Shown here piece after piece: positions 38,320-57,346 of a stretch of DNA of 64,000 nucleotides. Position 1 is the first letter of the stretch; each line of letters begins with the position of its first letter. This DNA is from Campylobacterales bacterium (GTDB taxonomy: Bacteria > Campylobacterota > Campylobacteria > Campylobacterales > UBA6016). The notes below the pieces were generated by a model that was given only the letters and a program-made list of their open reading frames with translations, made no database searches and was not told the origin of the DNA. The translations under genes were made by a program, and so were the position numbers. The stretch spans positions 926-64,925 of the forward strand of contig JBFWKW010000006.1 of NCBI GenBank assembly GCA_050252455.1, read 5' to 3'.

Positions 38320-39401
38320 TTTGTAGCCCCAAAAAATTGTTTTATTGTGTTGCATACCTGCATAGCGTCATCCTCGCTTAGATGCTCGCCTATCGGCAAA
38401 GACAAAAGCTCTTTGTCGGTGCGGCAAGCAAAAAATTCGCTCGTATCTTGCGTGTTATACGAGTATGCCGCAAGCTTCGGCAACGCTATCGGATAGTGTA
38501 TGCCGCTCTCCACTCCATGTGATGCCAAAAACTCTTTTAGCTCATCTCTTCTATCCGTGCGAACTACAAAAAGATGCCACACATGGCGCCTATCACCGTA
38601 AACCGTCGGCAATATAAGCGGCGTGTCGGCAAGCTCACGCAAATATATGCTAGCGATAGCGTTTCGTCTCTCTAGCCAGCTCTCTAGATGCGGAAGTTTG
38701 ACGCTAAGCACGGCGGCTTGAAGTCCGTCAAGTCTTGAGTTTCTACCTTCAAACTCATGGTCGTATTTGCCTGTTCTGCCGTGGTTTGCGGTCATTCTCA
38801 TTTTTTTTGCCAAGGCATCGTCGTTTGTCGTTATCGCCCCGCCGTCACCGTAAGCACCTAGATTTTTGCCCGGGTAAAAGCTAAACGATGCCGCATTCCC
38901 GAATGTGCCGACTTTGCGACCTTTGAACTGCGCCCCATGTGCTTGTGCACAGTCTTCGATGAGGGCTAGCGAATGCTCGGCACAAAACGCCGTTATCTCG
39001 TCCATGTCGCAAGGAAAGCCGTATAGATGTACGCAAATCACGGCCTTTAACCCCTCGCTCATCTCTAGCTTTATCGTGTAGTCATCTTTGGCATCTGCAA
39101 AAACCACCTCAAACCCTGCATTTGTAACCGCTTCGCTCGTAGCTATGAAGCTGTTTGCCGGGACTAAGACTTTGGAGCCATGCGGCAAACCGAGCGATTT
39201 CAGGGCTATCTCTATCGCATCCGTGCCATTGCCGACCCCGATGCAATGCTTTGCGCCGATATATGCGGCAAAATCCGCTTCAAACTTTTTGATCCTCTCG
39301 CCGCCTATGTATGCCGACTCGGCTATTACACCCGCTATTGCGGCGTCCATCTGGGGTTTTATACCGAGGTATTGTGCGTGAAGGTCCAAAAACTTAATCA
39401 A
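38316..39401 (-). CDS. DegT/DnrJ/EryC1/StrS-family sugar aminotransferase (set 1)
   Basis: 361 aa. 'GNGTDAIEIAL', PLP-lysine block 'SFYPGKNLGAYGDGGA', 'GRNSRLDGLQAAVL'. Confidence 0.85.
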   Translation of the reverse strand: MIKFLDLHAQYLGIKPQMDAAIAGVIAESAYIGGERIKKFEADFAAYIGAKHCIGVGNGTDAIEIALKSLGLPHGSKVLVPANSFIATSEAVTNAGFEVVFADAKDDYTIKLEMSEGLKAVICVHLYGFPCDMDEITAFCAEHSLALIEDCAQAHGAQFKGRKVGTFGNAASFSFYPGKNLGAYGDGGAITTNDDALAKKMRMTANHGRTGKYDHEFEGRNSRLDGLQAAVLSVKLPHLESWLERRNAIASIYLRELADTPLILPTVYGDRRHVWHLFVVRTDRRDELKEFLASHGVESGIHYPIALPKLAAYSYNTQDTSEFFACRTDKELLSLPIGEHLSEDDAMQVCNTIKQFFGATK

Positions 39402-40083
39402 TATGGCAAATCCCTATCTTTCCGAGATGTTCGCACTTGTCCGCACCAGCTTCGGCGGTTATCATCTCCCACGCCTCTTTCATCCCCTCAGACCAAGATA
39501 TATCGTCAAATGCCATCACCGAGCCTTTTGCCATAAAGGGAAGTATTTGTCGGTAGTATTTGACGGTTGCGTCTTTGTCGTGATGCCCGTCGATAAACGC
39601 AAAATCAATAGGCGCTATGTCGGCTAAGGTCTTATCAAGCACATCGGCAAACCGCCCGACTATCTGCGTGATATTCTCACATCCCGCTTTTTTGATGTTT
39701 TCGCCCGCAACTGCGGCTATCTCTTTGGCGCCCTCTATCGTATAGACTTTTGTGTCCGAGTTTGCCAAAGCCATAGTGATGGACGAAAACCCGCAACAAG
39801 TCCCAAGCTCCAAAACAACTTTCGGTTTTCGCTCCTTTATAAGCGTATAAATCCACTCGCTCCACTCGTTTTTGAGCCCTATGCCAGAGAGCTTGCCGAC
39901 GGTAGTCTGCGCCGTCTTACCCTTTGCCATCTCCTCTTCGGTGCGTTTGTCTTCAGGACTTCCTGCTCCAAAATCCAAAAATTCTATTACGCTATCGTCT
40001 TGCATTCCGCCGGCTCTCAGGCTCGCCACTAGGGCTAAGTTTTTTTTGTCATTTTCGTTTAGCATCAGTGTCCTAGCCTGCAT
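39394..40083 (-). CDS. class I SAM-dependent (O-)methyltransferase, CCoAOMT/family-3-like
   Basis: 229 aa. SAM motif I 'VLELGTCCGFS' and metal/acid motif 'FAFIDGHHD', 'MAFDDI'. Confidence 0.7.
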   Translation of the reverse strand: MQARTLMLNENDKKNLALVASLRAGGMQDDSVIEFLDFGAGSPEDKRTEEEMAKGKTAQTTVGKLSGIGLKNEWSEWIYTLIKERKPKVVLELGTCCGFSSITMALANSDTKVYTIEGAKEIAAVAGENIKKAGCENITQIVGRFADVLDKTLADIAPIDFAFIDGHHDKDATVKYYRQILPFMAKGSVMAFDDISWSEGMKEAWEMITAEAGADKCEHLGKIGICHID

Positions 40084-41123
40084 TTTTTTGGGGTAAAGTG
40101 CAAAAACACCTCTTCGCCCGTCTCAATAGACTCATAAATCGCCATGATTAGCTCCAAACTTTTCCTACCGACAAGCCCGTCTACAAGAGCTTTGCCACCG
40201 TTTTCTATACAGTCCACAACATGCTCATAGTATGCTTTGTGCCCAAAGCCGTACACATCGGGAGGGTTTGTCGAAAAGTCTCTTTTGATTATTTCATCTT
40301 CTTCGGTAGCATCCTTGAACTGCCAGTGCCTTATCTCATTGACGGCGAAACCGCCTATCTCCACGCTGCCCTTTTCACCCATGATGGAGATGGAGCCTTC
40401 AAGGTCTTTTGGCCTCGTGGCGGTGGTAGCTTCTATGATGCCAAGTGCGCCGTTTTTGAATTTGAGCACCGCAACACCCGTATCCTCAACCTCTATATTT
40501 ACGAGTTGCGTCGCACTTTTAGCAAATACGCTCTCCACATCGCCCATCAACCACTCTAGTAGGTCTATGTGATGGCTTGCCTGATTGGTGAACACTCCGC
40601 CATCCATCGCCCATGTACCTCGCCACTCGTCTTGGTCATAGTATTTTTGGTCTCTGCACCACCTAACACGCACAGTTCCCATCGTCAGTTTGCCAAAGCG
40701 TCCCGCTTGCATCGCCTCTCTTAGCTTCACCACCGGGAGGTTGTAGCGGTTTTGCTTGATTACAAAGAGTCTTACGCCGTTTTCGTCGCACGCCCTTATC
40801 ATCTTGTCGGCATCTTCTAGTGTAAGTGCCATAGGCTTTTCTACTATGATATGCTTTTTGTAAGGGGCGATTGCTAGCGTATGCGATGCGTGTACGCCGC
40901 TAGGGGTCAATATACTTACCGCATCTATATCTTTTTCGATGGCGAGCATCTCATATAGATTTGTGTAGTAGTTTACGCCATATTTTTCACCAAAACTCTT
41001 GGCTTTTGCCTCGTCGCTATCGCATACACAGGCCAGTTTTGCTCCATTGATATGCCCGCCGCCGAGGAGCTCGGCATGTCTGACCGCTATTCTCCCGCAA
41101 CCGAGTAATGCAATTTTTAACAT
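40065..41123 (-). CDS. Gfo/Idh/MocA-family NAD-dependent sugar 3-dehydrogenase (long, WlbA-like type)
   Basis: 352 aa. Rossmann 'IALLGCGRIA' and 'EKPMALT' blocks. Lies in the same operon block as an aminotransferase and the WbpD-like acetyltransferase. Confidence 0.75.
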   Translation of the reverse strand: MLKIALLGCGRIAVRHAELLGGGHINGAKLACVCDSDEAKAKSFGEKYGVNYYTNLYEMLAIEKDIDAVSILTPSGVHASHTLAIAPYKKHIIVEKPMALTLEDADKMIRACDENGVRLFVIKQNRYNLPVVKLREAMQAGRFGKLTMGTVRVRWCRDQKYYDQDEWRGTWAMDGGVFTNQASHHIDLLEWLMGDVESVFAKSATQLVNIEVEDTGVAVLKFKNGALGIIEATTATRPKDLEGSISIMGEKGSVEIGGFAVNEIRHWQFKDATEEDEIIKRDFSTNPPDVYGFGHKAYYEHVVDCIENGGKALVDGLVGRKSLELIMAIYESIETGEEVFLHFTPKKCRLGH

Positions 41124-42197
41124 CTATAATATCTCTTCTATTTTGTCTATGATGGCCTTGAAGCCGCACTCGCCGCGACAAAAATACTTTCTATTGTCCA
41201 TTTTTTTGCCGATTAGTTTTTTGGATAGCTCTAGCGCCTCATCTTCGCTGTTCGTCCAGTGCATAATGCCGTTTTGGATGAGGTATTGGTCGTGATATAG
41301 CCAAATTGAGCGGGTAGAAATAGTCGGCACACCATAATACACCGACTCCAAATTCATAGTACCACCGCCGCCGATGAACAGGTCAATAAACGGATAAAAC
41401 TCTTCCGGCTTTAGCTTCTCTTTTAGCACCGTGGCAATGTCGCCAAAATCTCTCTCCAGATATTCACTCTCATATCTAGGCATTATCACGATATTCACAT
41501 CCATCTCGGCCTTGAGCCTCGGGATGATGGAGTAAAGAAGTGGCAACTTCTCGCTCACATAGTGCGCCTTGTACTCCTCTTCCCTTACCATCACGGTCAT
41601 CTTGCCGTTGTCTATGCCGTATCTTTTTCTAAAGTCGTTTTTCTCTTCGGATTTAACATCTTTCATCCACAGGCACACATCCACAAAGTCATACGGGATT
41701 ATCTGCTCGTCACTCAGCGCCAGATTGGCAAACATCGAGCGAGGCATGATGTATGGATAAAAAAACAGCTTGGAGTACGGCAGAGTGAGCCTTGTCACGG
41801 GTGTGATGTTTTTTGGACTCTCAAGGTCACCAGGATATGTCACGGCGGGAGTGTCGTAGATATTAACAACCGGGATACCGATACCGAAAGCCACGTGTAC
41901 GCTATCTACGACGGCACCGCAGATGAGCACCTTTGGCACCCCTATCTGACGGAAAATATCCAAAAACTCTTTTTGACGGAAAATTCTAGCCTGAAACTTA
42001 TCCAAAAGCGTGCTACCGCCGTATTCACCGAGTACGGTATGCTCTATGCCGTTAAGCTCCAAAATCTCTTTCGCTTCGGTGTAGTGCGGGGCGTATCTGG
42101 TGGTTACGAATACTTTTTGACCCCTAGCTTGTAGCTCCGGAATCATCTTGCTAAAAAACATCGCATATTTAGGCGTGCCGACATCAATCCAAATCAT
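41124..42197 (-). CDS. DUF354-family protein (GT-B / 2-epimerase-like fold)
   Basis: 357 aa. The N-terminus 'MIWIDVGTPKYAMFF' is typical of DUF354 (PF04007) as I recall it. No assigned function. Confidence 0.6.
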   Translation of the reverse strand: MIWIDVGTPKYAMFFSKMIPELQARGQKVFVTTRYAPHYTEAKEILELNGIEHTVLGEYGGSTLLDKFQARIFRQKEFLDIFRQIGVPKVLICGAVVDSVHVAFGIGIPVVNIYDTPAVTYPGDLESPKNITPVTRLTLPYSKLFFYPYIMPRSMFANLALSDEQIIPYDFVDVCLWMKDVKSEEKNDFRKRYGIDNGKMTVMVREEEYKAHYVSEKLPLLYSIIPRLKAEMDVNIVIMPRYESEYLERDFGDIATVLKEKLKPEEFYPFIDLFIGGGGTMNLESVYYGVPTISTRSIWLYHDQYLIQNGIMHWTNSEDEALELSKKLIGKKMDNRKYFCRGECGFKAIIDKIEEIL

Positions 42198-43894
42198 ATA
42201 AGTTTTTTAAGCCTCTCATAAAAAAATATCCTGACATCCACGGTATCCTCGGCATCTCGCCCAAGTTCTCTCATCCATGCGATATCCGGTGCCTCAAAGC
42301 CTTTTTTGTCTTTTCTAAAGGCGATATCGTCGCCGATGTATCTTGCGAGTATTTTACGCAATAAAAACTTGCTGTAGCCGTTATGGAATTTGTATCCATT
42401 TGGCAAACTATGAGCAAACTCCACGATACGGTAGTCGGTAAATGGTGTTCTATTTTCCACGCCAAAGCGCATTGCATTGCGGTCTTCAAAGCGAAGCAAC
42501 ATCGGTAAATTGAATTTTACGGTATCGAGATAAAGCGCTTTTTGCGGACTGGGGACAAACTTTTCGAGTAGCAAATCATAGTTTGGATCATAATGTGGGA
42601 AAAGCTCTCTTATTTTTGCCAACGATTTTTTGTTATCGTCAATTATGAGCGATTTTTTAGCCTCTTTTGCCAATGCACACTTCACCCCAAGCGCATATTC
42701 GCCCTCGGCCGCATCGCCGTAGAGCGATACTCTATCTCTCAAATTTTGCTTATTTCGTGTCAAAAATCTAGCCGCATGATGGTAATAACCGCCGAAAAGC
42801 TCATCGGCCCCCTGCCCCGTGACCGCTACTTTGGAGTATTTGGATAACTCTTTAAAAACGGCATACTGCACAAAAGTGGAAAAACTCCTCGTCATGTCGG
42901 ATTGAGTCAATAGAAAATCATCCATTAGCTCTTTTAGCTCGTCTATGTGCGGCGATAGCTTGACTAGATTTAACCCAAACAGCTTTGCCACGATGTCCAT
43001 ATACTTGCTCTCATCGTTTGACGGATAAGATGGAAACACGGCGCCAAAATAACGCATATTTTTGTTGTTTTTTGCAAGAAGTGCGGCTAGTAGCGAGCTG
43101 TCTATACCCCCTGAAAGCAGTATCCCTACCTCAACATCGGAGCGAAGCCTAAGTAGTAGTGCGTCGTTTAGCAGCTCCTCAAATCCGTCGCACGCCCTCT
43201 CAAACTCTTTTTCGTCAAATTTTTTATTCGGCTCTTTACACCCATCAAGCTTCCAATATCGTTTGAGCGCTAGCTTGCCGCTTTTGGCGTCAAAGACGGC
43301 GTAATGCGCACTCGGCAGATGCTTTATACCCTTGTAAATAGTTGCTTCCGAGTAGTCATTGATATTAAAAAGTATAGAGTCACACAGTGTTTGCTCGTCA
43401 AACTCTAGCGAACAAATAGCCTTGAACGCTTTGATTTCAGAGGCAAAAAACAGCTTGCCGTCAGAGAGCTTGTAGTAAAACGGCTTGTTCCCCAGCCTGT
43501 CTCTTGCCATAAAAAGTTTTTTTGTCTTTTTGTCGTAAATACAAAACGCAAAATCACCGTTGAATTTGAGAAGAGCATCTGCGCCCCATTCTCTATAAGC
43601 CTTTAGCAGCACCTCGCTATCGCTTGAAGTGCGAAAAACTACGCCCCTACTTTGAAGCTCTCCCCTAATCTCTATGTAGTTGTATATCTCGCCGTTATAC
43701 ACGAGCACCAAATCCCCGTCAAACATCGGCTGTGACGCCTCATCGCTAAGGTCTATAATACTTAAACGATTGTGGGCTAACAACATATACTCGTCCGCAA
43801 AAATCCCGCTACCGTCGGGGCCTCTATGAGTCAGTGCATTTGAGGCTTTTTGGACAAGCTCTTTGCCGATATTTCCGCCGCAGATGGAGCACAT
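42194..43894 (-). CDS. asnB: asparagine synthase family amidotransferase, paralogue 2
   Basis: 566 aa. 'MCSICGG' Ntn Cys and PP-loop 'ILLSGGIDSS'. Confidence 0.85.
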   Translation of the reverse strand: MCSICGGNIGKELVQKASNALTHRGPDGSGIFADEYMLLAHNRLSIIDLSDEASQPMFDGDLVLVYNGEIYNYIEIRGELQSRGVVFRTSSDSEVLLKAYREWGADALLKFNGDFAFCIYDKKTKKLFMARDRLGNKPFYYKLSDGKLFFASEIKAFKAICSLEFDEQTLCDSILFNINDYSEATIYKGIKHLPSAHYAVFDAKSGKLALKRYWKLDGCKEPNKKFDEKEFERACDGFEELLNDALLLRLRSDVEVGILLSGGIDSSLLAALLAKNNKNMRYFGAVFPSYPSNDESKYMDIVAKLFGLNLVKLSPHIDELKELMDDFLLTQSDMTRSFSTFVQYAVFKELSKYSKVAVTGQGADELFGGYYHHAARFLTRNKQNLRDRVSLYGDAAEGEYALGVKCALAKEAKKSLIIDDNKKSLAKIRELFPHYDPNYDLLLEKFVPSPQKALYLDTVKFNLPMLLRFEDRNAMRFGVENRTPFTDYRIVEFAHSLPNGYKFHNGYSKFLLRKILARYIGDDIAFRKDKKGFEAPDIAWMRELGRDAEDTVDVRIFFYERLKKLI

Positions 43895-44998
43895 TTACAA
43901 TATATTCGCTATGTACTCAATCTCTGCGATGCCCAAAAACCCGTTCATCGGCAAACTGAGTATCCCTTTACTCACCATCTCGGCAATAGGAAAATCTCCA
44001 TTTTTATACCCAAGATAAGAAAAACACTCTTGTAGATGGAGGGGTAGGGGGTAGTGAATAGCCGTAGGAATTCCCGCATTCTTTAGCTTTTCTTGCAAAG
44101 AATCTCTGCTTGATGCTCTTATTGAATACTGTGCCCAGACGCTATCCCTATCCTGCTTTACAGACGGCAAGATAATATCTTTGCCAGATAAAGCCTCGTT
44201 GTATGAGTGTGCAACTTTTTGTCGCCTCTTTATCTCGGCTGTATAGTCTTTTAGTTTTACTCGCAAGACAGCGGCTTGAATAGTATCGAGCCTTCCACCG
44301 ATGCCTATGTATTTGTGATGGTATCTTTTTGTCTGCCCATGAACCCTAAGGCTTTTGATTTTGCTTGCCAGCTGATCATCGTTCGTAAATACGGCACCCC
44401 CATCACCAAAGCAACCAAGCGGCTTTGCAGGGAAAAAGCTAGTGCATCCTATATCAGATAGATTGCAACTTTTTTTGTCTTTGTAGTCGGCTCCAAAGCT
44501 TTGCGCACCATCCTCTATGACAACAAGCTTATATTTGCCAGCCAAAGCATTTATCTCATCCATATCTGCACATTGCCCGTAAAGACTTACAGGAATTATT
44601 GCTTTTGTTTTTGATGTTATCGCATTTTCTATCTTTGATACATCCATATTGTATGTATGCTCATCAATATCTACAAACACCGGTTTTGCGCCCAAATGGG
44701 CTATCATCTCTGCAGTTGCGATAAAAGTAAAAGGGGTCGTGATTACCTCATCGCCGGGCTTAATATCTATAGCCATTAACGCGAGCTGTAAAGCATCCGT
44801 GCCGCTAGAGCAAGCTATACAATATTTAGCTCCACAAAAATCAGCCAACTCACTCTCAAGTAAACCTACATCTTCGCCCATAACAAAAGAGGAGTTATTG
44901 ATAACATTTGCTATAGCATTATCAATCTCGTCCTTATAAAGCTGATATTGCTTGCCCAAATTAGCAAAATCTATGTTCACGATATCACTCTTTTGCAA
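43895..44998 (-). CDS. wbpE: UDP-2-acetamido-2-deoxy-3-oxo-D-glucuronate aminotransferase-like (DegT family, set 2)
   Basis: 367 aa. Long blocks match my recollection of P. aeruginosa WbpE: 'GAKYCI.C..GTDALQ', 'AIIPVSLYGQCADMD', 'CTSFFPAKPLGCFGDGGAVFTNDD', 'RYHH...G..GRLDTIQAAVL'. Confidence 0.88.
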   Translation of the reverse strand: MQKSDIVNIDFANLGKQYQLYKDEIDNAIANVINNSSFVMGEDVGLLESELADFCGAKYCIACSSGTDALQLALMAIDIKPGDEVITTPFTFIATAEMIAHLGAKPVFVDIDEHTYNMDVSKIENAITSKTKAIIPVSLYGQCADMDEINALAGKYKLVVIEDGAQSFGADYKDKKSCNLSDIGCTSFFPAKPLGCFGDGGAVFTNDDQLASKIKSLRVHGQTKRYHHKYIGIGGRLDTIQAAVLRVKLKDYTAEIKRRQKVAHSYNEALSGKDIILPSVKQDRDSVWAQYSIRASSRDSLQEKLKNAGIPTAIHYPLPLHLQECFSYLGYKNGDFPIAEMVSKGILSLPMNGFLGIAEIEYIANIL

Positions 44999-45936
44999 AA
45001 CTCATGCGATTCTACAGAAATACCAATAGGCACTGTCTTTCTGATATCAGAAACTATGGCTATCGAGCCTCTGGCATCCTCTAAGCCAAATCCGCCGCCG
45101 CCCAAAATATCCTCATAACTTCTGGTATGAAGGTCGGTAAAACCCTCCGAAAACTCAATCTCTTCGTTTGCCACTTTGATACTTCTAAAAGTCCTCTGCC
45201 CTTTTGCCTTTACTTCCTCCGGAATATAGTCATAATTTACGGACAAAAACCATTTTACGGTCGCATTTTTCAGCCTTAATATTCCCGCATTAGTATCTTT
45301 GGTTTTTATATGGACTATGTTTTCCAGCAAATCCCCAAATATCCAAGAGAGCATATCAAAAAAGTGTACACCGATATTTGAGGCTATGCCGCCGGACTTG
45401 CTTTCATCGCCTTTCCAGCTAACAAAATACCAATTGCCCCTTGATGTTAAATAGGTCAAATCTATGTCATATATCTTGCTTGGGTTTGCCGATAGCTCAG
45501 CGGCAACTTTCTCTTTTAGTGCTATTATTGCGGAATGTAGTCTTAACTGAAGTATCGTATATACTTTTTTATCGCTCTCTTTTTCTATGTCGGTGAGAGC
45601 GTCCAAATTCCAAGGATTGAGCACTAATGGTTTTTCACATATCGCATGAGCATTTGAACGCATGGCAAACCTAATATGTGCATCATGAAGATAGTTTGGC
45701 GAGCATATAGAAACATAGTCTATCTTTTGCCCGGCACGTCTTAATTTTTCTATATGCCTATCAAACCTCTCAAATTCAACAAAAAAATCCGCATTCGGGA
45801 AATAGCTATCTATAACCCCGACACTATCTTTTGGGTCAAATGCAGCAACAAGCGTATTACCCGTTTCTTTGATGGCTTTCATGTGACGAGGCGCTATGTA
45901 GCCTGCTGCACCTATGAGGGAAAATGACTTATGCAT
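44977..45936 (-). CDS. wbpB: UDP-N-acetyl-2-amino-2-deoxy-D-glucuronate 3-dehydrogenase-like (Gfo/Idh/MocA, short WbpB type)
   Basis: 319 aa. Matches recalled WbpB blocks: 'LIGAAGYIAPRHMKAIKETGN', 'DYVSICSPNYLH', 'ICEKPLV', 'LTYLTSRGNWY..SWKGD', 'IGVHFFDML', 'FSEGFTDLHT.SYE.IL'. Confidence 0.88.
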   Translation of the reverse strand: MHKSFSLIGAAGYIAPRHMKAIKETGNTLVAAFDPKDSVGVIDSYFPNADFFVEFERFDRHIEKLRRAGQKIDYVSICSPNYLHDAHIRFAMRSNAHAICEKPLVLNPWNLDALTDIEKESDKKVYTILQLRLHSAIIALKEKVAAELSANPSKIYDIDLTYLTSRGNWYFVSWKGDESKSGGIASNIGVHFFDMLSWIFGDLLENIVHIKTKDTNAGILRLKNATVKWFLSVNYDYIPEEVKAKGQRTFRSIKVANEEIEFSEGFTDLHTRSYEDILGGGGFGLEDARGSIAIVSDIRKTVPIGISVESHEFCKRVIS

Positions 45937-46690
45937 GCAAAACTCTCTCTAGTTCATTATATGTTGGGTATGTTATCAAAACAGCTCTATGCGGACCGTT
46001 AAACACAAAAAGGCTACCCGCACTTACGCCTCCAGCCCCTGCCTTAATAGCTTGGTCAAAATCACTTACCGCTCCAGCTCCGCCCAGCGCAACTACGGGT
46101 ATATCGACCGCTGCAGTCACGATATTTATAAGACGCAAATCATATCCGGACATTGTGCCGTCTTTGTCGACGGAATTTATAATAATCTCTCCAGCCCCAT
46201 ATGATTCCATTTCTTTTGCCAAACACACCGGATCAATGGAAGTTTTTTTTGTGCCACTGTGTGTGTAGCAAAAATATCCACCAAACAAACTTTTTTTTGC
46301 ATCTATTGAGCCAACTACGCTCTGGGAGCCATATACATCCGCTATCTCTCTAATAAGCGCACCATTGCCGACAGCATATGTATTAAGTATGATTTTTTCA
46401 AAGCCTATGGAGAAAAGCTTTTTGGCATCTTGTAGGCATGATATACCGCCTCCGTATGCAAGAGGCATAAAAGCCTCGGAAGCAATATCCCTAAGCAAAT
46501 CAAAATCCGGTGTTTTTCTATCATTTGTAGCCGATATATCCAGTATTATAAGTTCATCAACTTCTTTGTCATTAAATATCTTCACTGTATTTATAGGATC
46601 GCCAATGTATTGATGGTTTTTAAATTTTATCCCTTTATATAAGCCGCCTTTTTTTAAAAGAAGCGTTGGGATAACCCTGGTCTTTAGCAT
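45929..46690 (-). CDS. hisF: imidazole glycerol phosphate synthase cyclase-subunit homologue (WbuZ/HisF2 type, glycan amidino formation)
   Basis: 253 aa. 'RVIPTLLL', 'DELIILDI' and 'GAGEIIINSVDKDGT' blocks in glycan-locus context next to the wbpB-like gene. Confidence 0.85.
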   Translation of the reverse strand: MLKTRVIPTLLLKKGGLYKGIKFKNHQYIGDPINTVKIFNDKEVDELIILDISATNDRKTPDFDLLRDIASEAFMPLAYGGGISCLQDAKKLFSIGFEKIILNTYAVGNGALIREIADVYGSQSVVGSIDAKKSLFGGYFCYTHSGTKKTSIDPVCLAKEMESYGAGEIIINSVDKDGTMSGYDLRLINIVTAAVDIPVVALGGAGAVSDFDQAIKAGAGGVSAGSLFVFNGPHRAVLITYPTYNELERVLHA

Positions 46691-47301
46691 TCTAATTCCA
46701 TAAAATTTCTAAAAAGCTGCATACCAAACTTGTGGCTTTTTTCGGGATGGAATTGCATCCCGTATATATTTTTGCTGGATATTGCAGAGGCAAATTCATA
46801 GCCGTACATAGTAGCGCCGGCTACATTTTCATCCTTATCACATACATAGTGATAGGAATGGACGAAATAAAACCTCATTTCTTCCGGCATATCTGCAAAT
46901 AACGGTATATTTTTTTTAGGGTTTACTATATTCCATCCCATGTGCGGTATTTTTAGTTTGTTAGCATTATCTCCGAAATGAAACTTTTTTACATGCCCTT
47001 TTATGAGTCCAAGTCCTGGTAGACAGCCCTCCTCGCTAGAATCGGCAAGAAGTTGCATACCGAGACAAATCCCAAGTATTACCGCTCCGCTTTCGGCTTT
47101 TTGTTTAATAACACCTGTGAGACCTGAAGAATTTAGATTCGACATGCCGGTATCAAAAGCGCCGACTCCTGGAAGTATTATTTTGCTAGCGTCAAGTATT
47201 TCAGATGGATTTGATGATACCTTGGAATCGTATCCGACTTTTTTTATCATATTTTGGATTGAGCCTATATTGCCAAGACCATAGTCGACTATTATTGTCA
47301 C
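46684..47301 (-). CDS. hisH: glutamine amidotransferase subunit homologue (WbuY/HisH2 type)
   Basis: I prefer the GTG at 47301 ('(M)TIIVDYGLGNIGS'), which overlaps the upstream TGA, over the track ATG at 47331. Catalytic 'GICLGMQ' Cys and 'HSY'/'FHPEKS' His-Glu blocks. Confidence 0.85.
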   Translation of the reverse strand: MTIIVDYGLGNIGSIQNMIKKVGYDSKVSSNPSEILDASKIILPGVGAFDTGMSNLNSSGLTGVIKQKAESGAVILGICLGMQLLADSSEEGCLPGLGLIKGHVKKFHFGDNANKLKIPHMGWNIVNPKKNIPLFADMPEEMRFYFVHSYHYVCDKDENVAGATMYGYEFASAISSKNIYGMQFHPEKSHKFGMQLFRNFMELEC

Positions 47302-47990
47302 TCGAAATATTTCCGAAGTATATTTTCGCATATATCCAAATCATTGTGGCTATCTATGTCTATGCTTTTATCTGGGCTCATAGAAAATGGAATTGTTTTG
47401 TCCGTAAAAAAACTTTTATTCTTTAGAAATAAATCCGCCTTAACTATGTATATAGCCCCATTTGGCATGTAGGCCCTAGGCAGCGCCTGTCTTCTCATAA
47501 ATGGAGTTTTGTTGTCTACAAGACCTTGTAGGTATCCATTTTTTGACAATGTAAACATCTTATATGGGCTATGCGACGGCTCATAAACACTAATCAGTGA
47601 ATCCGCATCATGAGAAATAAAGTCAGAAATAGCATTATCTATATCAGCGGAATCGCGCAACGGAGATGTTGGCTGCAGCAAAACGATACTATCAAAATTG
47701 GAACCTTTTTTTGACAAATAATCTAGCGCATGAGAAACGGTTGGTTCCGTTGGTGCCTCGTCGGTAGCAAGCTCCGTAGGTCTTTTTATGCATTCTATAC
47801 CGTACTGATTCGCAATCCTAAGTATCTCGTCGCAATCAGATGAAACACATACAGAATCAATACTATTGGAATTCAATGCCGCTTCTATAGTCCATGCAAT
47901 AAGCGGCTTTCCGTGTAGCTGTGATATGTTTTTATTTACAATCCCCTTGGAGCCGCCTCTTGCCGGAATAACAGCTAGAAAGTTTTTCAT
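47298..47990 (-). CDS. neuA: acylneuraminate (nonulosonate) cytidylyltransferase family
   Basis: 230 aa. 'AVIPARGGSKGI.NKN' and 'LQPTSPLR' motifs of CMP-NulO synthetases. Neu vs Leg vs Pse specificity is not resolvable by eye. Confidence 0.85.
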   Translation of the reverse strand: MKNFLAVIPARGGSKGIVNKNISQLHGKPLIAWTIEAALNSNSIDSVCVSSDCDEILRIANQYGIECIKRPTELATDEAPTEPTVSHALDYLSKKGSNFDSIVLLQPTSPLRDSADIDNAISDFISHDADSLISVYEPSHSPYKMFTLSKNGYLQGLVDNKTPFMRRQALPRAYMPNGAIYIVKADLFLKNKSFFTDKTIPFSMSPDKSIDIDSHNDLDICENILRKYFE

Positions 47991-49355
47991 TTATACCGTC
48001 AGGTCGGAACTTAAGCCCGACATACTTCTCAGGTCGTCATACTTAATATCATCGCTCTCAATGGCATCTTTAAAAAATAGTTGGGCCAGCATCTCTTTGC
48101 GCTCCGCTCCGAACTCAGAGAGCGAAAATAACTCCCCGCTAATGCTATATTTTTGGAGAAACTCACCTACTTCATTTGGAACTGTAACCGTGTTTGCCCA
48201 TCTAATATTCACAAGATAAAAGCCATTTTCTTTTCTAAATCTAAGTCTTTTTGGAGCAGTAAATTTTGCATTGTTCTCTATAGCTCTATAAATCATAGGG
48301 TCATGCACTATCTTATACGGACGCACAAAGCTATCCTTGCCTGTCATAAAATTGTCTTGCCCGTTTAAATCACCGCTAAACGCATGCGCAGACATTCGAC
48401 ATCCTGTTTGGCAAATATCTATATAGTCACATCCCATACATCCCGGATATCTATAGCTCATATCATGCCAAGCATGCATCTTTTCATAACACTTATAAAT
48501 ACCGTCTTCAAATATATTTCCGTAAGCCTCTTCTTGATGTACGCATGCATGCGTATTGCCGTCAGCATTAAGACTTAAAATGTGTCCTGATTGAGCGGGG
48601 CATCCGCGACCGACAAAATCCCTGTATTTTTCAAGATCGCTGAGCAGGCACAGCGGATAGCTAACAAGCGTACCAATCATGATGCCTGTTTTCTCTTTCG
48701 CTGCAATAAGTTGGTCTACCGTCGAAAGAGCATCCTCTCTCGTTACTTTGAACTCTGATGCATTGGGATTGCATTCATTAATTGATGGAACCACCCTTGT
48801 GCCAAAAATTTTCTGGCAACCAAGAGAGTGTGCAAATAAAGCGGTATCATAAACATGCATTTTATTTCTTTCCGACACAATCATGTTCACACTAACCCTC
48901 ATATCATTTTTGATACAAGATTCTATACCGCTTACTATTTTATCAAAAGCACCGTCTTGATGTACCATATAATCGTTTGTTGCCCTATCATATGAATTTA
49001 GACTGGTAAGAATATGATCCAACCCGGCATCCCTGAGCCTCCTAATTTTATCATCCGTAGCAAGCATTAGATTGCTGTTGCAACTTATTGATATATTGTT
49101 GTCTACCAATTTTTTAAAGCCATACTCAAGAAGATCAAATCTAGCGAATGGTTCACCGCCTGTTAATACAACATGAAAAACACCGGCATCAACAAATTGC
49201 TCAATAAGCAAATCCATTTTTTCTTTTGTAAGGGAGCTAGACTTAGAACTATCCTCTCTCCAAAAGTTATAGCAATGCCTGCATTTAACATTGCAAACAT
49301 CGGTAATCTCCAAATTAACGACAGTTGGAGCACTAAATATTTTTTTTTCTCTCAC
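47991..49355 (-). CDS. radical SAM / SPASM-domain protein
   Basis: 'NLEITDVCNVKCRHC' CxxxCxxC. The C-terminal 'GCMGCDYIDICQTGC' matches the SPASM CX2CX5CX3C exactly. A GTG at 49355 with an AGAAGG SD 6-7 nt upstream avoids the 85-nt overlap implied by the track ATG at 49451. Confidence 0.8.
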   Translation of the reverse strand: MREKKIFSAPTVVNLEITDVCNVKCRHCYNFWREDSSKSSSLTKEKMDLLIEQFVDAGVFHVVLTGGEPFARFDLLEYGFKKLVDNNISISCNSNLMLATDDKIRRLRDAGLDHILTSLNSYDRATNDYMVHQDGAFDKIVSGIESCIKNDMRVSVNMIVSERNKMHVYDTALFAHSLGCQKIFGTRVVPSINECNPNASEFKVTREDALSTVDQLIAAKEKTGIMIGTLVSYPLCLLSDLEKYRDFVGRGCPAQSGHILSLNADGNTHACVHQEEAYGNIFEDGIYKCYEKMHAWHDMSYRYPGCMGCDYIDICQTGCRMSAHAFSGDLNGQDNFMTGKDSFVRPYKIVHDPMIYRAIENNAKFTAPKRLRFRKENGFYLVNIRWANTVTVPNEVGEFLQKYSISGELFSLSEFGAERKEMLAQLFFKDAIESDDIKYDDLRSMSGLSSDLTV

Positions 49356-49366
49356 GGTAAACCTTC

Positions 49367-50578
49367 TTAAACTATTTGATTTCTCAGTTTCCACATATCG
49401 CCATTTTTTTCCCACAAGTGCGGCGACCTGGCCTTGTTTATAATCTCCCAAAATTTATCTTCAGTAATATCCATATAGTTTAATATTTCACCAAGATATT
49501 TTGTAGGCAATTCGGAATCATATTTTTTAACCAAATAAACCCCTTCTTCTCTTGTTATTTTTCCGTTTCTAATCTCTTGTGCGGCATCATACGTGGCTCT
49601 ACCTATACCAAACTTTATGTATGTTGTATAGTAATGTAAAGGGTCTATTTTGTCGTCGATACTGCTATACTTGGAAAAACTACCCTCTGTCCTCTCCGTA
49701 TTTGACTGAAAGCCTGTATGCTCCGCCGCATAATAATAATTTTCTTGAGGATCCCAATTTAAGTAGTAGCTAATGTGATGAACCTCCGTTCCCACCTTTT
49801 TTAGTTTTTCACCGCTAACCGGCAAATAAGGGTTGAGGTCACTCAATCTTATATTGTGTTCTTCAGATATCTCTCTGGCAGACACTCCGCCCAAAAATAG
49901 GTTATCGATATTTGGTTCTTCTTCATAAAATTTTGGCAACATAGTAGGCCTGAACGCGCCATCCAGGTCATCACCATATTCTGCGGCATGCTCACCATAA
50001 AATACAAGCGGGATTTCATAAAGGGCAGAAAACCTAGCGGCAAGCATTTTTTGCCCTATTATAAACGGCTGAAAAGGGTGGCATAAATTTTCAAAAGCAA
50101 GCTTTGTGAGCAGTCTATGTACTTTTCCATTTGGGGTCACGAGTATATTGTCAAAACCAGAATCTATCCAACTATGAAAATTCCTAAAGCCTATATCGGT
50201 ATACATATGCGGAGACCAAGTCACAGTCAGCGGGTTCATGTTGTATTTAAACTTCAAAATATGAGACACGAAGGCACTATCTTTCCCGCCGCTACCGGGT
50301 ACTATGCAGTCGTAAGAGCCATCGCTTTTTCTATATCTATTGCACAACTCAACAAGTTCTTTTTCTCTCTCTTCCCAATTCATTTTGTTCCGCTTTATCT
50401 CTGCATACTTACAAGCACTACATACACCGTCTTCATCAAAAAAAATAGTTGGCTTTTTGCCGTTTGCCGTATTTTTAAACTCAACGACGGAGCCCGGTCT
50501 TTGATTTGACATAACGCATTTTTTGCAAAATTTTACCTCGCTGGGTAGTCCATAATAAGCGGTTAAATTATTTGTCAT
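49367..50578 (-). CDS. N-acetyl sugar amidotransferase (PP-loop; PseA/flagellin-modification type, TIGR03573-like)
   Basis: 403 aa. N-terminal Zn-ribbon 'CKKCVMSNQRP...CSAC' and PP-loop 'IVPGSGGKDS'. Confidence 0.8.
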   Translation of the reverse strand: MTNNLTAYYGLPSEVKFCKKCVMSNQRPGSVVEFKNTANGKKPTIFFDEDGVCSACKYAEIKRNKMNWEEREKELVELCNRYRKSDGSYDCIVPGSGGKDSAFVSHILKFKYNMNPLTVTWSPHMYTDIGFRNFHSWIDSGFDNILVTPNGKVHRLLTKLAFENLCHPFQPFIIGQKMLAARFSALYEIPLVFYGEHAAEYGDDLDGAFRPTMLPKFYEEEPNIDNLFLGGVSAREISEEHNIRLSDLNPYLPVSGEKLKKVGTEVHHISYYLNWDPQENYYYAAEHTGFQSNTERTEGSFSKYSSIDDKIDPLHYYTTYIKFGIGRATYDAAQEIRNGKITREEGVYLVKKYDSELPTKYLGEILNYMDITEDKFWEIINKARSPHLWEKNGDMWKLRNQIV

Positions 50579-51230
50579 TGCGATTCCTTGTACATATATC
50601 TATAAAGTTTTTGATTATCATGAGCCCATACTTGCCGCTCTTTTCTGGGTGGAACTGGCACCCGTAAATATTATCTTTTTTCACGGCCGAACAGAATGAA
50701 ATCCCAGCATAATTAGTCACCGACAAGATGCTCCTTTTGTCATTCGGAACAGCCGCATAGCTGTGTACAAAATACATATCTTCTTCGTTATTTAAATCAT
50801 TAAATATAGTGTCGCCCCAATCTGCATAAGCAGTCTTCTTGATTCCATTCCAGCCTATATGCGGCAGTTTGCCGTAAAAGTCGACAGGAAAACTATCCAG
50901 CCTGCAAACCCTGCCGTTAATCAACCCGAGTCCATTGGACATGCCAAACTCTTCACTCTCGTCAAAAAGAAGTTGCATACCTAGACATATGCCAAGTATG
51001 GGTCTACCACTGTGTGCAAACTCTATAATCGGCTTTACAAGATTTAAATCTAGCAAATTTTGCATACCATGAGCGAATGCTCCAACCCCGGGGACCACAA
51101 GACCGTCTGCTGTTTCTATCTCATGAGCGTTGCGCGTTAATATCGGAATAGTGCCATTTTTTTCAAACGCACCGTTAATGCTGCGTATATTGCCGACTCC
51201 GTAGTCCAAAACGGCAATTTTGCAACTCAT
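50568..51230 (-). CDS. hisH: glutamine amidotransferase subunit homologue (HisH-like), set 1
   Basis: 220 aa. 'IAVLDYGVGNIRSI', 'GICLGMQ', 'VHSY' and 'FHPEKS' blocks. Confidence 0.88.
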   Translation of the reverse strand: MSCKIAVLDYGVGNIRSINGAFEKNGTIPILTRNAHEIETADGLVVPGVGAFAHGMQNLLDLNLVKPIIEFAHSGRPILGICLGMQLLFDESEEFGMSNGLGLINGRVCRLDSFPVDFYGKLPHIGWNGIKKTAYADWGDTIFNDLNNEEDMYFVHSYAAVPNDKRSILSVTNYAGISFCSAVKKDNIYGCQFHPEKSGKYGLMIIKNFIDICTRNRNDK

Positions 51231-51988
51231 ATCCTTACCCCAACACCAAGCGCTCCAATTCCTGACTTAATCACACCGATTGATTCTATTTCATAATGCA
51301 AGACAGAAGCTAACGCTACGGCGTTTATATTTTTTTGCACAGACAATAACTTCTCTATATCAGACAGGCTACCGGCACCCCCACTAGCTATGACCGGTAT
51401 AGACACGGAGTCACATACGCTAGAGTACAATTCCAAATCAAACCCCTTTTTTGTCCCTTCCATATCGACCGATGTGAGCATAATCTCGCCAGCGCCAAGA
51501 TGCTCTACTTTTTTGGCCCACTCCAGCACATCCAAACCGGTAGGCTCTCTGCCGTTATCTATATATGCTTCCCATTTATCTTTGGATATTTTCTTTGCGA
51601 CTATAGACGAAACTATACACTGGGAGCCGAACACGCGAGATGCCTCCTCTATAAAAGCAGGGTTTTTTACGGCTTGCGTATTTATGGCTACCTTATCGGC
51701 ACCAATGCTCAATGCAAGTTTGATATCTGCTATGCTTCTAATCCCGCCGCCTACGGTGATTGGTACAAATATGTTTTTGCATGCCTTTTCTATAATATCG
51801 CCCAAACTATTTCTATCATAATAGGCCGCCACGGCATCCATAAAAATTATCTCATCTATACCTTGCTCGTAATACCTTAGAGCCATTTCATTTGGATTGC
51901 CGACCTTTCGCAGACCCTCCAAATGTATTCCTTTTATGACATATTCATTTTTAACATCTATTCTTGCAATAACCCTAAATTTGCTCAT
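51227..51988 (-). CDS. hisF: cyclase subunit homologue (HisF-like), set 1
   Basis: 253 aa. 'RVIARIDVK', 'DEIIFMD', 'GGGIRS' and 'GAGEIMLTSVDMEGT' blocks. Confidence 0.88.
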   Translation of the reverse strand: MSKFRVIARIDVKNEYVIKGIHLEGLRKVGNPNEMALRYYEQGIDEIIFMDAVAAYYDRNSLGDIIEKACKNIFVPITVGGGIRSIADIKLALSIGADKVAINTQAVKNPAFIEEASRVFGSQCIVSSIVAKKISKDKWEAYIDNGREPTGLDVLEWAKKVEHLGAGEIMLTSVDMEGTKKGFDLELYSSVCDSVSIPVIASGGAGSLSDIEKLLSVQKNINAVALASVLHYEIESIGVIKSGIGALGVGVRI

Positions 51989-53129
51989 TTGACCCTAGTT
52001 CCATAAACTGCTTTTGATGTTTTATATTCCAAAGATTATCAGTGTTAAGTATTTCAAAAAACATTTTATCGCTATTGCCGTCACCAAAACGCCCTGACAT
52101 ATTTGCAGCGCTACATCCATGTCCGCTATATTTTATAGCTAGCGATATTGAATTTAGAATATCGATCTTCTCATATGATGAATGAAATATAGAGGGAAGT
52201 TTCGCCCTGTTCATTTGTCTGGTTCCTATATCGACCGCAGGAACATCATAATAATGAGCCTCTCTAATACCTGCGCTAGAGTTTCCTATGATGAAATCAG
52301 CATACATCAGAAGAGATAGGAAATATTCAAATCTAATTGACGAGAATATTCTAAATGAAGAATTACCTTCAAGCCTCCTGTATTCCTCCAGTATCTCCAT
52401 GCTGCCAAGGTCATTATTGGGATATATCACTATATATTTTTTTTTACTTTCCAGCAATGCATCTACAAAATTTTTTACATGCTCCCTGATCATTCTATAT
52501 TCCGTAGTAACCGGATGAAACATAGCTATTGCGTAGCTATCAAACTCAAGATCGTAATATCTTTTTACATCATCTATATTGGTCAGCTTCTCCGGATTCA
52601 TTAAGTCTAAGTCTGGCGAGCCTATAACAAATATAGAATTTTGATTCTCACCAAGCTGAATAAGCCTTCTTCTTGCCTCTTCATTGGCCACAAAGTGCAC
52701 ATGCGACAGCTTGCTTACGGCATGCCTAATCAGCTCATCCACAGTACCTGATATTTCTCCGCCCTCTATATGGGCAACAAGCACATTATTAAGGCTTCCG
52801 ACGATGGCGCCGGCCATAGCCTCAACCCTGTCGCCATGCACGACTATAAGGTCTGGTTCTATCTCGCTTATGTATTTTGAAAAACCATCTATCGTCTTTG
52901 CCAATGTTCTATCCATATGCTCAACGATATCGTGGTTTATGAATTGGTATATATTCTTAAAGCCGGACTTGTATATTTCGTCAACAGTTTTGCCATATTT
53001 TGAATTTATATGCATACCCGTGGCAAATATATGCACATCAAAACAGCTGGAAGACTGGGTAATCCTAATCAACGATTTCAGTTTTCCAAAATCAGCCCTA
53101 GTGCCGGTTAAAAATACTATTTTCTTCAT
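51975..53129 (-). CDS. neuC: UDP-N-acetylglucosamine 2-epimerase (hydrolysing), NeuC/LegG type
   Basis: 384 aa. 'FLTGTRADFGKL', 'VHGDR.E' and 'AHIEGGE.SGT.DE..RH..SKLSH.HF' blocks of TIGR03568-type enzymes. Confidence 0.88.
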   Translation of the reverse strand: MKKIVFLTGTRADFGKLKSLIRITQSSSCFDVHIFATGMHINSKYGKTVDEIYKSGFKNIYQFINHDIVEHMDRTLAKTIDGFSKYISEIEPDLIVVHGDRVEAMAGAIVGSLNNVLVAHIEGGEISGTVDELIRHAVSKLSHVHFVANEEARRRLIQLGENQNSIFVIGSPDLDLMNPEKLTNIDDVKRYYDLEFDSYAIAMFHPVTTEYRMIREHVKNFVDALLESKKKYIVIYPNNDLGSMEILEEYRRLEGNSSFRIFSSIRFEYFLSLLMYADFIIGNSSAGIREAHYYDVPAVDIGTRQMNRAKLPSIFHSSYEKIDILNSISLAIKYSGHGCSAANMSGRFGDGNSDKMFFEILNTDNLWNIKHQKQFMELGSNEQI

Positions 53130-55177: not shown

Positions 55178-56239
55178 TTACTTCACTATATTGAAATTTT
55201 CTACATCCGCCATTTTAACATGTTGATCTGCCGCTATGTCAATCAAGGCTCTTTTGCCATGCAAATCAAAATAAAACTCTGCGGGTATCTCACCAACACC
55301 TGGTCTTTTTACCCAAGTATTGCTTTCATTAAAAGTCTCCCCTTTTGATATATTACGAGTTGTAACCACCGTAGCAAAAGCAAAGTCCATTGTTACCTGC
55401 TCTTCCGGAAGCAGAGCCTTGGCGCCACCTCTCATTTTTGCAAGCTCTATACTACCGCTTATCAACTCTTTTAGTGCCACAGGATCCATGGAATTGACTA
55501 TATCAGGACCAACTCTATCCATTCTATCTGTAAAATGCCTTTCTAGTATGGACGCCCCAAGTGCAACAGCCCCAAAACATGCAAGATTTGATGTTGTGTG
55601 GTCTGATAAGCCTATAACGGCTTTCGGAAATACCTCTTGCAGCTGAACCATCGCCCCAAGTCTTACCAAATGCGACGGTGTGGGATATAGATTTGTGGTA
55701 TGAAGCAGTGCATACTGTATATTATATTTTTCCATTATTGCAACCGCTTTTGAAACAGAGTCAATAGTATTCATGCCGGTGCTAACTATCATCGGTTTTC
55801 CAAATCTCGCTATGTGCTCTATTAGCGGATAGTTATTGCACTCTCCTGAGCCTATTTTGTATGCCAATACACCCATTTTCTCTAGCCTATCGGCTGCGGC
55901 ACGAGAAAAAGGAGTACTAATAAATACCATTCCGCGAGACTCAACATGCTGTTTTAGCGCAAGCTCGTCTTTTTCGTCAAGAGCACATTTTTGCATTATT
56001 TCATATATAGATATACTAGCATTACCGGGGATTACTTGTTTTGCGGCAGCACTCATTTCGTCTTCCACTACATGTGTCTGATGCTTGATAAACTCGGCTC
56101 CACTTTTCCATGCTGCGTCAACCATTTCTATTGCCGTCTCAAGGGAGCCGTTATGGTTTATGCCCAGTTCTGCAATAACAAGAGGGTCAAAGTCATATCC
56201 TATTTTTCTGCCGGCTATTTCTATAAACTTTTCAGACAA
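55178..56239 (-). CDS. neuB: N-acetylneuraminate synthase family (NeuB/LegI type) with C-terminal SAF domain
   Basis: 353 aa. '[11 protein letters not shown]', 'KHQTH' and 'GLSDHT' blocks, plus a C-terminal SAF/antifreeze-like domain. Confidence 0.9.
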
Positions 56240-56248
56240 ACCATACCC

Positions 56249-57346
56249 CTACTTGTAAAAATTATCTTTTAAAATTTCAATATACCTACGAGTCTGTAAA
56301 TTTAAATCCAATATTATAGATAAATGCTTAGTTTGCTCAATATCGTATTTAATATTTAAAGCTTTAGCAAAAACGCCAGAAAGCTCCGATTCATTCTCAA
56401 ATAAAATTCCGTTTACATCTTTTTTTATAAATTCTGCATTATTCGGTATATCTTTGGCTATTACAATTTTGCACGCAGCCATTGACTCTAAAATACTTTG
56501 CGACAACCCATCTGTGTCTGTATAGCTAATTACATAATCACTCAAATGAATAGCCTCATGCATAAACTCATGCGGGATATGAGCAAAAAATATATCGTCC
56601 ACAAATCTGGTTTTACCAACAATCTCTATGATATCTGCCATATATTTAGGGTCGGCGTTGGAGGTGGAAATAAGCAAAATAGCATCGCTACCGGTTTGTT
56701 TTTTGAAATCCAAAAACGATTCCACTATTTCACGCTTGTGGTAAAATCTGTTCATTGACCTAATGCAAAAAAAAATTTTTCTATTATTTTTTTTAGAGGC
56801 AAGCCAATCCATATAGGTAAAAGTCTTTGAATGGTTTGCAAATCTATTTTCAACGCCCCAGCTTATAATTTTTATTTTTTCCTTATCTAGTTTGTCAAAG
56901 TTTGACAGTAGCATTTCTTTCATATACTCCGATTTAACGGTAATCAACTTACATCTTCTCAGCAACAAATATGTAAAAAACTTTTTCCAGCCACCCGCAT
57001 CCTGCTTGCCATCTATATCGCCGCCCATAGTGTGAACGATTATTTTTTTAGCAAACAAAGACAAGGCAAGACATTGCCAAATTCTACTTGCCCAGTGAAC
57101 CACTATAAGCCTTGGACGATACCTCAAAATAAGCCAAAAAGTGAAAATGGCATTTACAAGATAGCGCAATGTGCGATTTTTGAAACAGTGCGGCTTTATA
57201 ATCTTAAACTCGCTTTTCAAAACTTCTTTGCAATCTGCATTTGCAACTACGATAAGCTCGTCGTCTAGCTCTTTAAGCATAGCTATGCGAGGTGGTATTA
57301 GTGGGCTATTTACATCACCAAAAGCCAAAATCACTCTACAATCCAA
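56249..57346 (-). CDS. glycosyltransferase, GT-B fold (GT4-like)
   Basis: 365 aa. C-terminal E-x7-E-type block 'DGLSQSILESMAACKIVIA'. Confidence 0.7.
   Translation of the reverse strand: MDCRVILAFGDVNSPLIPPRIAMLKELDDELIVVANADCKEVLKSEFKIIKPHCFKNRTLRYLVNAIFTFWLILRYRPRLIVVHWASRIWQCLALSLFAKKIIVHTMGGDIDGKQDAGGWKKFFTYLLLRRCKLITVKSEYMKEMLLSNFDKLDKEKIKIISWGVENRFANHSKTFTYMDWLASKKNNRKIFFCIRSMNRFYHKREIVESFLDFKKQTGSDAILLISTSNADPKYMADIIEIVGKTRFVDDIFFAHIPHEFMHEAIHLSDYVISYTDTDGLSQSILESMAACKIVIAKDIPNNAEFIKKDVNGILFENESELSGVFAKALNIKYDIEQTKHLSIILDLNLQTRRYIEILKDNFYK

Follow-up and report, generated by a model that had tools for sequence, protein, structure and literature searches.

Two complete sets of amidotransferase genes lie in one array

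Within a 64,000-nucleotide stretch from the genome of an uncultured Campylobacterales bacterium (contig JBFWKW010000006.1, positions 926 to 64,925; the whole stretch is hereafter the window), we analyzed two HisH/HisF pairs and two PP-loop N-acetyl-sugar amidotransferases (NASATs) encoded beside genes for surface sugars. The assembly comprises 2.13 Mb in 48 contigs. All open reading frames (ORFs) of 35,968-64,000 are on the minus strand and form a single array of 26, in which the widest intergenic gap is 74 bp. The six genes are intact and lie where an original prediction, made from the DNA letters alone, had placed them:

49367-50578, minus strand: WbuX1, NASAT (TIGR03573, 361.9 bits; cut-off 203.2)
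60294-61388, minus strand: WbuX2, NASAT (TIGR03573, 292.6 bits; cut-off 203.2)
50568-51230, minus strand: HisH1, class-I glutaminase (TIGR01855, 214.9 bits; cut-off 105.4)
46684-47331, minus strand: HisH2, class-I glutaminase (TIGR01855, 231.4 bits; cut-off 105.4)
51227-51988, minus strand: HisF1, HisF paralogue (PF00977 His_biosynth, 219 bits)
45929-46690, minus strand: HisF2, HisF paralogue (PF00977 His_biosynth, 200 bits; NF038364, 355 bits)

We refer to HisF1-HisH1-WbuX1 as set A and to HisH2-HisF2 with WbuX2 as set B. With a probability of about 0.72, the cluster encodes two independent glutamine-dependent NASAT systems, A and B, that use the channel mechanism and act on the sugars proposed below. 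The capacity for two distinct acetamidino groups that had been claimed for this locus is supported, as the six genes are intact, the two types are distinct and housekeeping copies are found elsewhere in the genome.

NASATs carry a PP-loop motif, SGGxDS, and a tetracysteine motif, CxxC-Xn-[GN]xCxxC (PMC10607449). Both are intact in WbuX1 (SGGKDS; CKKC...GVCSAC) and in WbuX2 (SGGVDS; CSRC...GECNFC), and a search for inactivating PP-loop substitutions found none in either protein. WbuX2 also retains every invariant column of an 18-member homologue alignment. HisH enzymes depend on a Cys/His/Glu catalytic triad (PMC8115485), which is present in both HisH1 and HisH2 (GICLGMQ, QFHPEKS). For HisH2, the likely start, favored by homologues, is the originally chosen GTG at 47301, which shares nucleotides with the TGA stop of the upstream cytidylyltransferase gene (GTGA); the other candidate is an ATG at 47331. 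WbuX1 and WbuX2 are the only two NASAT genes in the genome.

Sequence identity is 38% between HisF1 and HisF2, 43% between HisH1 and HisH2 and 22% between WbuX1 and WbuX2. In a HisF tree, the glycan-associated proteins formed one clade with two subclades, F1 (support 99) and F2 (support 100), and in a NASAT tree the WbuX1 and WbuX2 types were split by a very long branch. The strings by which the HisF copies had been told apart, RVIARIDVK and RVIPTLLLK, are both present, and the view that they do not reflect a recent duplication holds: the HisF copies belong to separate, strongly supported clades and the NASATs fall on opposite sides of the long branch. On this evidence, the paired copies are judged to be old paralogues.

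Neither HisH/HisF pair is the histidine-pathway enzyme

One of the pairs could in principle be the imidazole glycerol phosphate synthase of histidine biosynthesis. Both HisH copies score above the cut-off of the generic HisH model, which does not tell glycan from housekeeping proteins, and HisF1 shares 45% identity with the housekeeping HisF. However, a search of the rest of the genome, as the original prediction had advised, located a canonical hisF on contig C1 (362.5 bits; TIGR00735 cut-off 294.55) and hisH-hisA on contig C2. HisF1 (262.9 bits) and HisF2 (211.1 bits) both fall short of the hisF cut-off, and each lacks one of the cyclase's two catalytic Asp residues. The separate housekeeping genes and the lost Asp residues refute a housekeeping role for either pair, and we regard this explanation as extremely improbable. 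HisF1 also scores below the cut-offs for WbuZ (TIGR03572; 266.9 versus 299.7) and for the AglZ/HisF2 family (NF038364; 184.4 versus 310). HisF2 misses the former (294.6) and, with its 355 bits, passes the latter. Both proteins probably act in the manner of WbuZ without belonging to that equivalog.

Glycan HisF proteins have lost cyclase residues and kept the ammonia gate

To compare the residues that matter for cyclization and ammonia transfer, we aligned 103 HisF sequences at positions 11, 98 and 130 and at the residues that gate ammonia in T. maritima HisF (R5, E46, K99 and E167). In the HisF cyclase, D11 is the general acid and D130 the general base (PMC11350729). The residues found were:

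Housekeeping HisF (n=6): positions 11, 98 and 130, Asp, Asp and Asp
F1-type HisF (n=10): position 11, Asp in 10/10; position 98, Asp in 10/10; position 130, Glu in 7, Gln in 2, Val in 1 (the window protein)
F2-type HisF (n=77): position 11, Leu in 72/73; position 98, Glu in 75/77; position 130, Asp in 76/77

HisF1 thus has D11 and Val at position 130, and HisF2 has Leu at position 11, Glu at position 98 and D130; the gate is intact in both. The housekeeping hisF on contig C1 encodes both catalytic Asp residues. All four gate residues and both phosphate-site glycine motifs are present in every glycan HisF aligned. Each glycan HisF clade has lost a different catalytic Asp of the cyclase while retaining the gate, which fits a role as a pure ammonia channel.

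The Val at position 130 of HisF1 might reflect faulty assembly or gene decay. We searched a library of 1.84 billion representative proteins with HisF1; among the best 150 matches, 99 were nearer to HisF1 than to the housekeeping copy. Position 130 in these 99 was mostly Glu or Gln, being other than Asp in about 88 and Asp in about 11, and all three Asp residues were present in 41 of the 51 housekeeping-like matches. Error or decay was rejected, as the clade varies at this position (Glu, Gln, Ala, Thr, His, Val) and a second representative also has Val. About 25 of the 99 F1-type representatives were single-chain fusions of 470-530 amino acids with HisF first (for example P0241, P0243 and P0244). 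This order, HisF-HisH, is the gene order in the window and the reverse of the HisH-HisF order of the eukaryotic fusion. The fusions support a physical complex between the two F1-type partners.

A route from glutaminase through a HisF channel to a NASAT has already been proposed for WbuXYZ, AglXYZ and WbpG/HisH2/HisF2. By analogy, the HisH-like subunit of each set would hydrolyze glutamine, and the ammonia would pass through the barrel of the HisF-like protein, with its cyclase chemistry lost and its gate retained. The PP-loop NASAT, using ATP, would then activate the carbonyl in the N-acetyl group of a sugar and exchange O for NH to give an acetamidino group. This mechanism and the physical complexes that it implies are probable. 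In the histidine enzyme, the mutation fD98E raises HisH activity (PMC8115485). By inference, the natural Glu98 of the F2 clade may switch on HisH without PRFAR.

NASATs pair with HisF and HisH proteins type for type

WbuX2 is separated from HisH2-HisF2 by 13 kb and 12 genes. In an AlphaFold model of WbuX2 (predicted local distance difference test score 87.9), the top structural match was the Legionella pneumophila NASAT structure 8WEX (E 2e-13, TM-score 0.63-0.65), and other PP-loop enzymes gave TM-scores of about 0.3. By sequence, WbuX2 matched 8WEX with only 26 bits and falls outside the Legionella NASAT/PtmG subtype. WbuX2 is thus modeled with the NASAT fold.

To determine which HisF proteins accompany each NASAT type, we compared gene neighborhoods. 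WbuX2-type NASATs (44-60% identity) directly adjoined HisH2- and HisF2-type genes in 7/7 genome loci, from Methylophilus, a Myxococcales metagenome-assembled genome (MAG), Pelomonas, a Pseudomonadota MAG and two Campylobacterales relatives. A scan of genome contigs with WbuX2 yielded 5 loci only. In a metagenome scan with alignment, which added 80 loci, an F2-type HisF was adjacent to the WbuX2-type gene in 70 of 80, with 4 clear exceptions among the 64 loci that had at least 1 kb of upstream sequence. The 85 adjacent HisF-NASAT pairs comprised 69 of X2 with F2 (plus 2 borderline), 4 of X1 with F1, 9 in which both partners were of other types and 1 of another NASAT with F2; not one was a cross-type pair of X1 with F2 or X2 with F1. 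In three relatives, an X1-type NASAT (59% identity) was unlinked to HisF, yet a third, F1-type His_biosynth gene was present elsewhere in the genome. A blastn search of E. coli genomes with the WbuX2 DNA, aimed at wbuXYZ of O145, gave no match.

WbuX2 had been put forward as the long-range partner of HisH2/HisF2, and this is backed by the conserved synteny and the type-for-type pairing elsewhere. The gene before WbuX2 suggests how the two parts came to be separated:

61463-62956, minus strand: soluble 497-amino-acid protein with a weak C-terminal match to the BFO_1060-family glycosyltransferase (NF046086, 40 bits)

WbuX2 follows this gene after 74 bp. In 16 other loci, relatives of about 480 amino acids are encoded directly upstream of HisH2-HisF2-WbuX2 trios, usually after a Wzx-like gene. 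The 497-amino-acid protein is possibly a nonulosonate transferase; a Wzy-like polymerase is ruled out for it and for its 479-amino-acid relatives, none of which has transmembrane segments. Since its relatives precede the whole trio elsewhere and here it precedes WbuX2 only, the gene is taken to mark the ancestral position of the trio, and it is HisH2-HisF2 that would have relocated. We conclude from this comparison that the set-B trio has been split by rearrangement, leaving HisH2-HisF2 between the cytidine monophosphate (CMP)-nonulosonate synthetase gene and a WbpB-like gene. Such a split is unusual but not unique.

The same neighborhoods bear on a reading in which only one trio is genuine. 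WbuX2 would then work alone, depending on ammonia, and HisH2/HisF2 would be a spare or common source of it, for instance a backup for WbuX1. The 13 kb between WbuX2 and HisH2/HisF2, the solitary WbuX2-type gene in four metagenome loci and a relative, G056, with three NASATs and no HisF paralogue would all suit it. So would the description of TIGR03572, under which WbuY and WbuZ are presumably not essential for WbuX activity. Yet a shared or spare supply sits poorly with the lack of cross-type combinations among the 85 adjacent pairs and with the tie of the F2 clade to the X2 clade in 70/80 loci. Furthermore, all of the genes lie in one gap-free array, so that distance is no bar to co-expression of WbuX2 with HisH2/HisF2. 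We consider a single true trio quite unlikely.

Set A is linked to nonulosonate synthesis

Set A belongs to a module with genes of nonulosonate synthesis:

51975-53129, minus strand: NeuC/LegG-type hydrolyzing 2-epimerase (TIGR03568, 407 bits), which heads the NeuC-HisF-HisH-NASAT module
55178-56239, minus strand: NeuB-family nonulosonate synthase (PF03102, 223 bits; NeuB_NnaB 370 versus PseI 213 bits)
47298-47990, minus strand: CMP-nonulosonate synthetase (PF02348, 92 bits; PseF model 158 bits, under its cut-off)

The set had been described as contiguous with neuC, and HisF1 indeed overlaps NeuC by 14 nucleotides and HisH1 by 4 nucleotides. The label of PseA type given to WbuX1 has no clear support. 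WbuX1 matched 8WEX with 510 bits over residues 5-402 and is of the Legionella NASAT/PtmG (Cj1324) type; presumed PseA-like NASATs, from small-genome relatives whose genes run NASAT-HisH-HisF, share only 32-33% identity with it and lie in a different clade. Our naming of subtypes rests on curated hidden Markov model cut-offs, PDB 8WEX and published papers.

WbuX1 homologues at 65-71% identity occur in many phyla, always alongside NeuB/NeuC and F1-type HisF/HisH. In Geomonas, Sporomusa and Pseudodesulfovibrio, they accompany NeuB, NeuC, a CMP-synthetase and HisF/HisH (identity to HisF1, 51-58%; to HisH1, 46-53%), and the order in Geomonas paludis, NeuC-HisF-HisH-NASAT, is identical to that in the window. 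ORF28 of the Legionella lipopolysaccharide locus is homologous to Campylobacter ptmG (Cj1324), forms CMP-Leg5Am7Ac from CMP-Leg5Ac7Ac and is co-transcribed with neuA/B/C (PMC3766260). A pglF-pglE-pglD...pglB-like N-glycosylation locus on contig C3 (G000 C3:4898-11143) could be a source of UDP-diNAcBac. Given the match to 8WEX, the homology of ORF28 to ptmG, the linkage to NeuB/NeuC in other genera and the pglF-E-D locus, the most likely target of set A is the N5 position of a legionaminic-type nonulosonate.

Compared with the named systems, WbuX1 resembles ORF28 (lpg0748, LpNASAT, 8WEX) of Legionella and PtmG of Campylobacter in its full-length match, its SGGKDS and tetracysteine motifs and the long insert between the CxxC halves (PMC10607449). 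Like ORF28, it is encoded in an operon with neuA/neuB/neuC-type genes (PMC3766260). Unlike these systems, the diNAcBac genes of the window organism are unlinked, on contig C3, and the set-A module has embedded in it a B12-radical S-adenosylmethionine (SAM) protein, a TylF-like methyltransferase and a SPASM radical SAM protein, so that the nonulosonate is probably further tailored. From its first TTG, the ORF of the SPASM radical SAM protein (47991-49451, minus strand) overlaps the end of WbuX1 by 85 nucleotides; its real start is probably later.

The locus resembles C. jejuni PseA (Cj1316c) with Cj1315c/Cj1314c (Pse5Ac7Am) in combining a NASAT with HisH/HisF in a nonulosonate locus of a Campylobacterales species, and differs from it in that WbuX1 groups with the Legionella/PtmG type. 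C. jejuni has two NASATs and one HisH/HisF pair, as against two pairs in the window genome. The latter, too, has a separate Pse cluster, PseB-PseC-PseF-PseI (C24:1223-6398), and, with a dedicated CMP-synthetase, a third NeuB (C2:154955-160931); three nonulosonate synthases are thus encoded within a 2.1-Mb genome.

Set B adjoins a candidate diamino-sugar pathway

HisH2-HisF2 lie next to a second group of sugar genes, and the array also encodes three AsnB-like enzymes:

37750-45936, minus strand: two 3-dehydrogenase/aminotransferase pairs, acetyltransferase, AsnB-like protein, DUF354 protein and O-methyltransferase, a candidate 2,3-diacetamido sugar pathway
35968-37743, 42194-43894 and 57336-59108, minus strand: three AsnB-like amidotransferases, Cys2 glutaminase intact

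HisF2 overlaps HisH2 by 7 nucleotides and the WbpB-like gene by 8 nucleotides, in keeping with the earlier placement of the pair directly upstream of wbpB/wbpE. Genes orthologous to the acetyltransferase and to both GFO/DegT pairs, at 61-71% identity, border set-B trios elsewhere. In P. aeruginosa O5 and M. maripaludis, the named AglZ/HisF2-family proteins act on ManNAc3NAcA. The overlap, the flanking orthologues and the substrate of the named family members together point to a 2,3-diacetamido sugar, the presumed product of the neighboring WbpB/WbpE/WbpD-like enzymes, as the molecule on which set B most likely amidinates an N-acetyl group; the genes at 37750-45936 would be the probable source of this substrate.

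Among named systems, set B is closest in kind to HisH2-HisF2-WbpG of P. aeruginosa O5 and AglX/AglY/AglZ of M. maripaludis, which place a 3-acetamidino group on ManNAc3NAcA. HisF2 passes the AglZ/HisF2 equivalog cut-off, and the WbpB/WbpE/WbpD-like and AsnB-like neighbors parallel the pathways to ManNAc3NAmA and to archaeal ManNAc3NAmA6Thr, the latter known from the M. maripaludis glycan structure (PMC11407970). The window differs in having the NASAT 12 genes from HisH2-HisF2 and a DUF354 protein in place of WbpA/WbpI. The order in P. aeruginosa is hisH2-hisF2-wbpG (PA3152-PA3150), which matches the HisH-HisF-NASAT order usual in relatives of the window genes. With E. coli O145 WbuX/WbuY/WbuZ (L-FucNAm), the window shares the three-protein logic, and both of its NASATs pass TIGR03573; FnlA-like genes stand beside set-B trios in 10/51 other loci. 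On the other hand, both HisF proteins are under the WbuZ cut-off and genes of the FucNAc pathway were not found in the window.

The AsnB-like enzymes were weighed as recipients of ammonia from HisH2/HisF2. This was rejected, as all three start with MCG or MCS and thus have an Ntn glutaminase of their own; their products may be uronamides or amides of amino acids, as in the ManNAc3NAmA6Thr of M. maripaludis.

The neighbors of set B also suggest another assignment, with one nonulosonate as the substrate of both trios. Set A would modify its N5 acetyl and set B its N7 acetyl, and the diamino sugar would not be amidinated. WbuX2 adjoins the soluble BFO_1060-like, probable nonulosonate transferase, and the order transferase-HisH-HisF-WbuX2 occurs in NeuB loci that have no visible WbpB-like gene (L012, L013, L082, L109 and L121); such NeuB loci often hold a second NASAT trio. 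The substrate of the named AglZ/HisF2 members speaks for the diamino sugar instead, as do the translational coupling of HisH2-HisF2 to the WbpB-like gene and the presence of WbpB-like genes in 14 of the 51 set-B loci, each at least 9 kb long, in which context was counted. Moreover, we know of no described 5,7-diacetamidino nonulosonate. A shared nonulosonate substrate is therefore unlikely. The corresponding extension, that set B amidinates the second N-acetyl of the set-A nonulosonate to give a 5,7-diacetamidino product and that the recurring gene order marks a widespread, doubly cationic pathway, we hold to be doubtful at best.

How the two-system reading stands

Several observations weigh against two independent systems with these targets, and the target sugars are its weakest part. 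The HisF-tree outgroup was drawn from a single order. In the set-A module, the radical SAM and methyltransferase genes suggest a nonulosonate that may differ from both plain Leg and Neu. No WbpA/WbpI-type gene was found in the cluster; three sugar 6-dehydrogenases are encoded on contig C2, and the sole Epimerase_2 protein of the genome is NeuC. Set-B loci are varied in context: WbpB-like genes occurred in the 14 of 51 noted above, NeuB in 10, FnlA-like genes in 10 and none of these in 24. With several sugar contexts, the target sugar cannot be read from the type of trio alone. A complete 1.59-Mb genome of the same order, G056 (loci L041, L042, L043, L068 and L076), encodes three NASATs and, as His_biosynth proteins, only hisF and hisA. 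Another relative, G031, has the order NASAT-HisF-HisH-NASAT (L039:8653-12488, minus strand), with two divergent NASATs around one pair, which suggests one ammonia supply for two enzymes. The G056 and G031 arrangements imply that the HisH/HisF helpers are probably accessory and not obligatory.

The NASATs of G056 have no dedicated HisF-like partner. Two relatives encode proteins of about 610 amino acids (L044:7933-9774, minus strand; L053:1164-2984, plus strand) in which an N-terminal Ntn glutaminase (GATase_6/7) is joined to a NASAT-like region that scores 144-148 bits on TIGR03573, under the cut-off. These may represent a third route of ammonia supply.

To judge how common the combination is, we counted the genes of set-B loci. 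At least two NASATs were present in 11 of the 51, and two NASATs together with two HisF genes in 7. Double trios make up some 15-20% of comparable loci. The exact combination of A and B was found in the Myxococcales MAG, in Pelomonas caseinilytica and in one metagenome contig. Judged by these homologues, both trios are of widespread, known kinds, and their pairing recurs in other bacteria. A non-exhaustive full-text literature search found no described glycan with two amidino sugars.

Implications

Acetamidino groups place positive charge on otherwise acidic surface sugars, and in Legionella, Pseudomonas and Campylobacter they affect antigenicity, phage binding and host interaction. For the window organism, our analysis predicts a glycan that bears two differently placed amidino groups. 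For the families concerned, NASAT and HisF/HisH clades pair strictly by type, also when the genes are unlinked. Clade pairing, the lost Asp and Glu98 provide simple sequence rules for annotating HisF/HisH paralogues, and the residue signatures give testable hypotheses on how the glutaminase may be activated without PRFAR.

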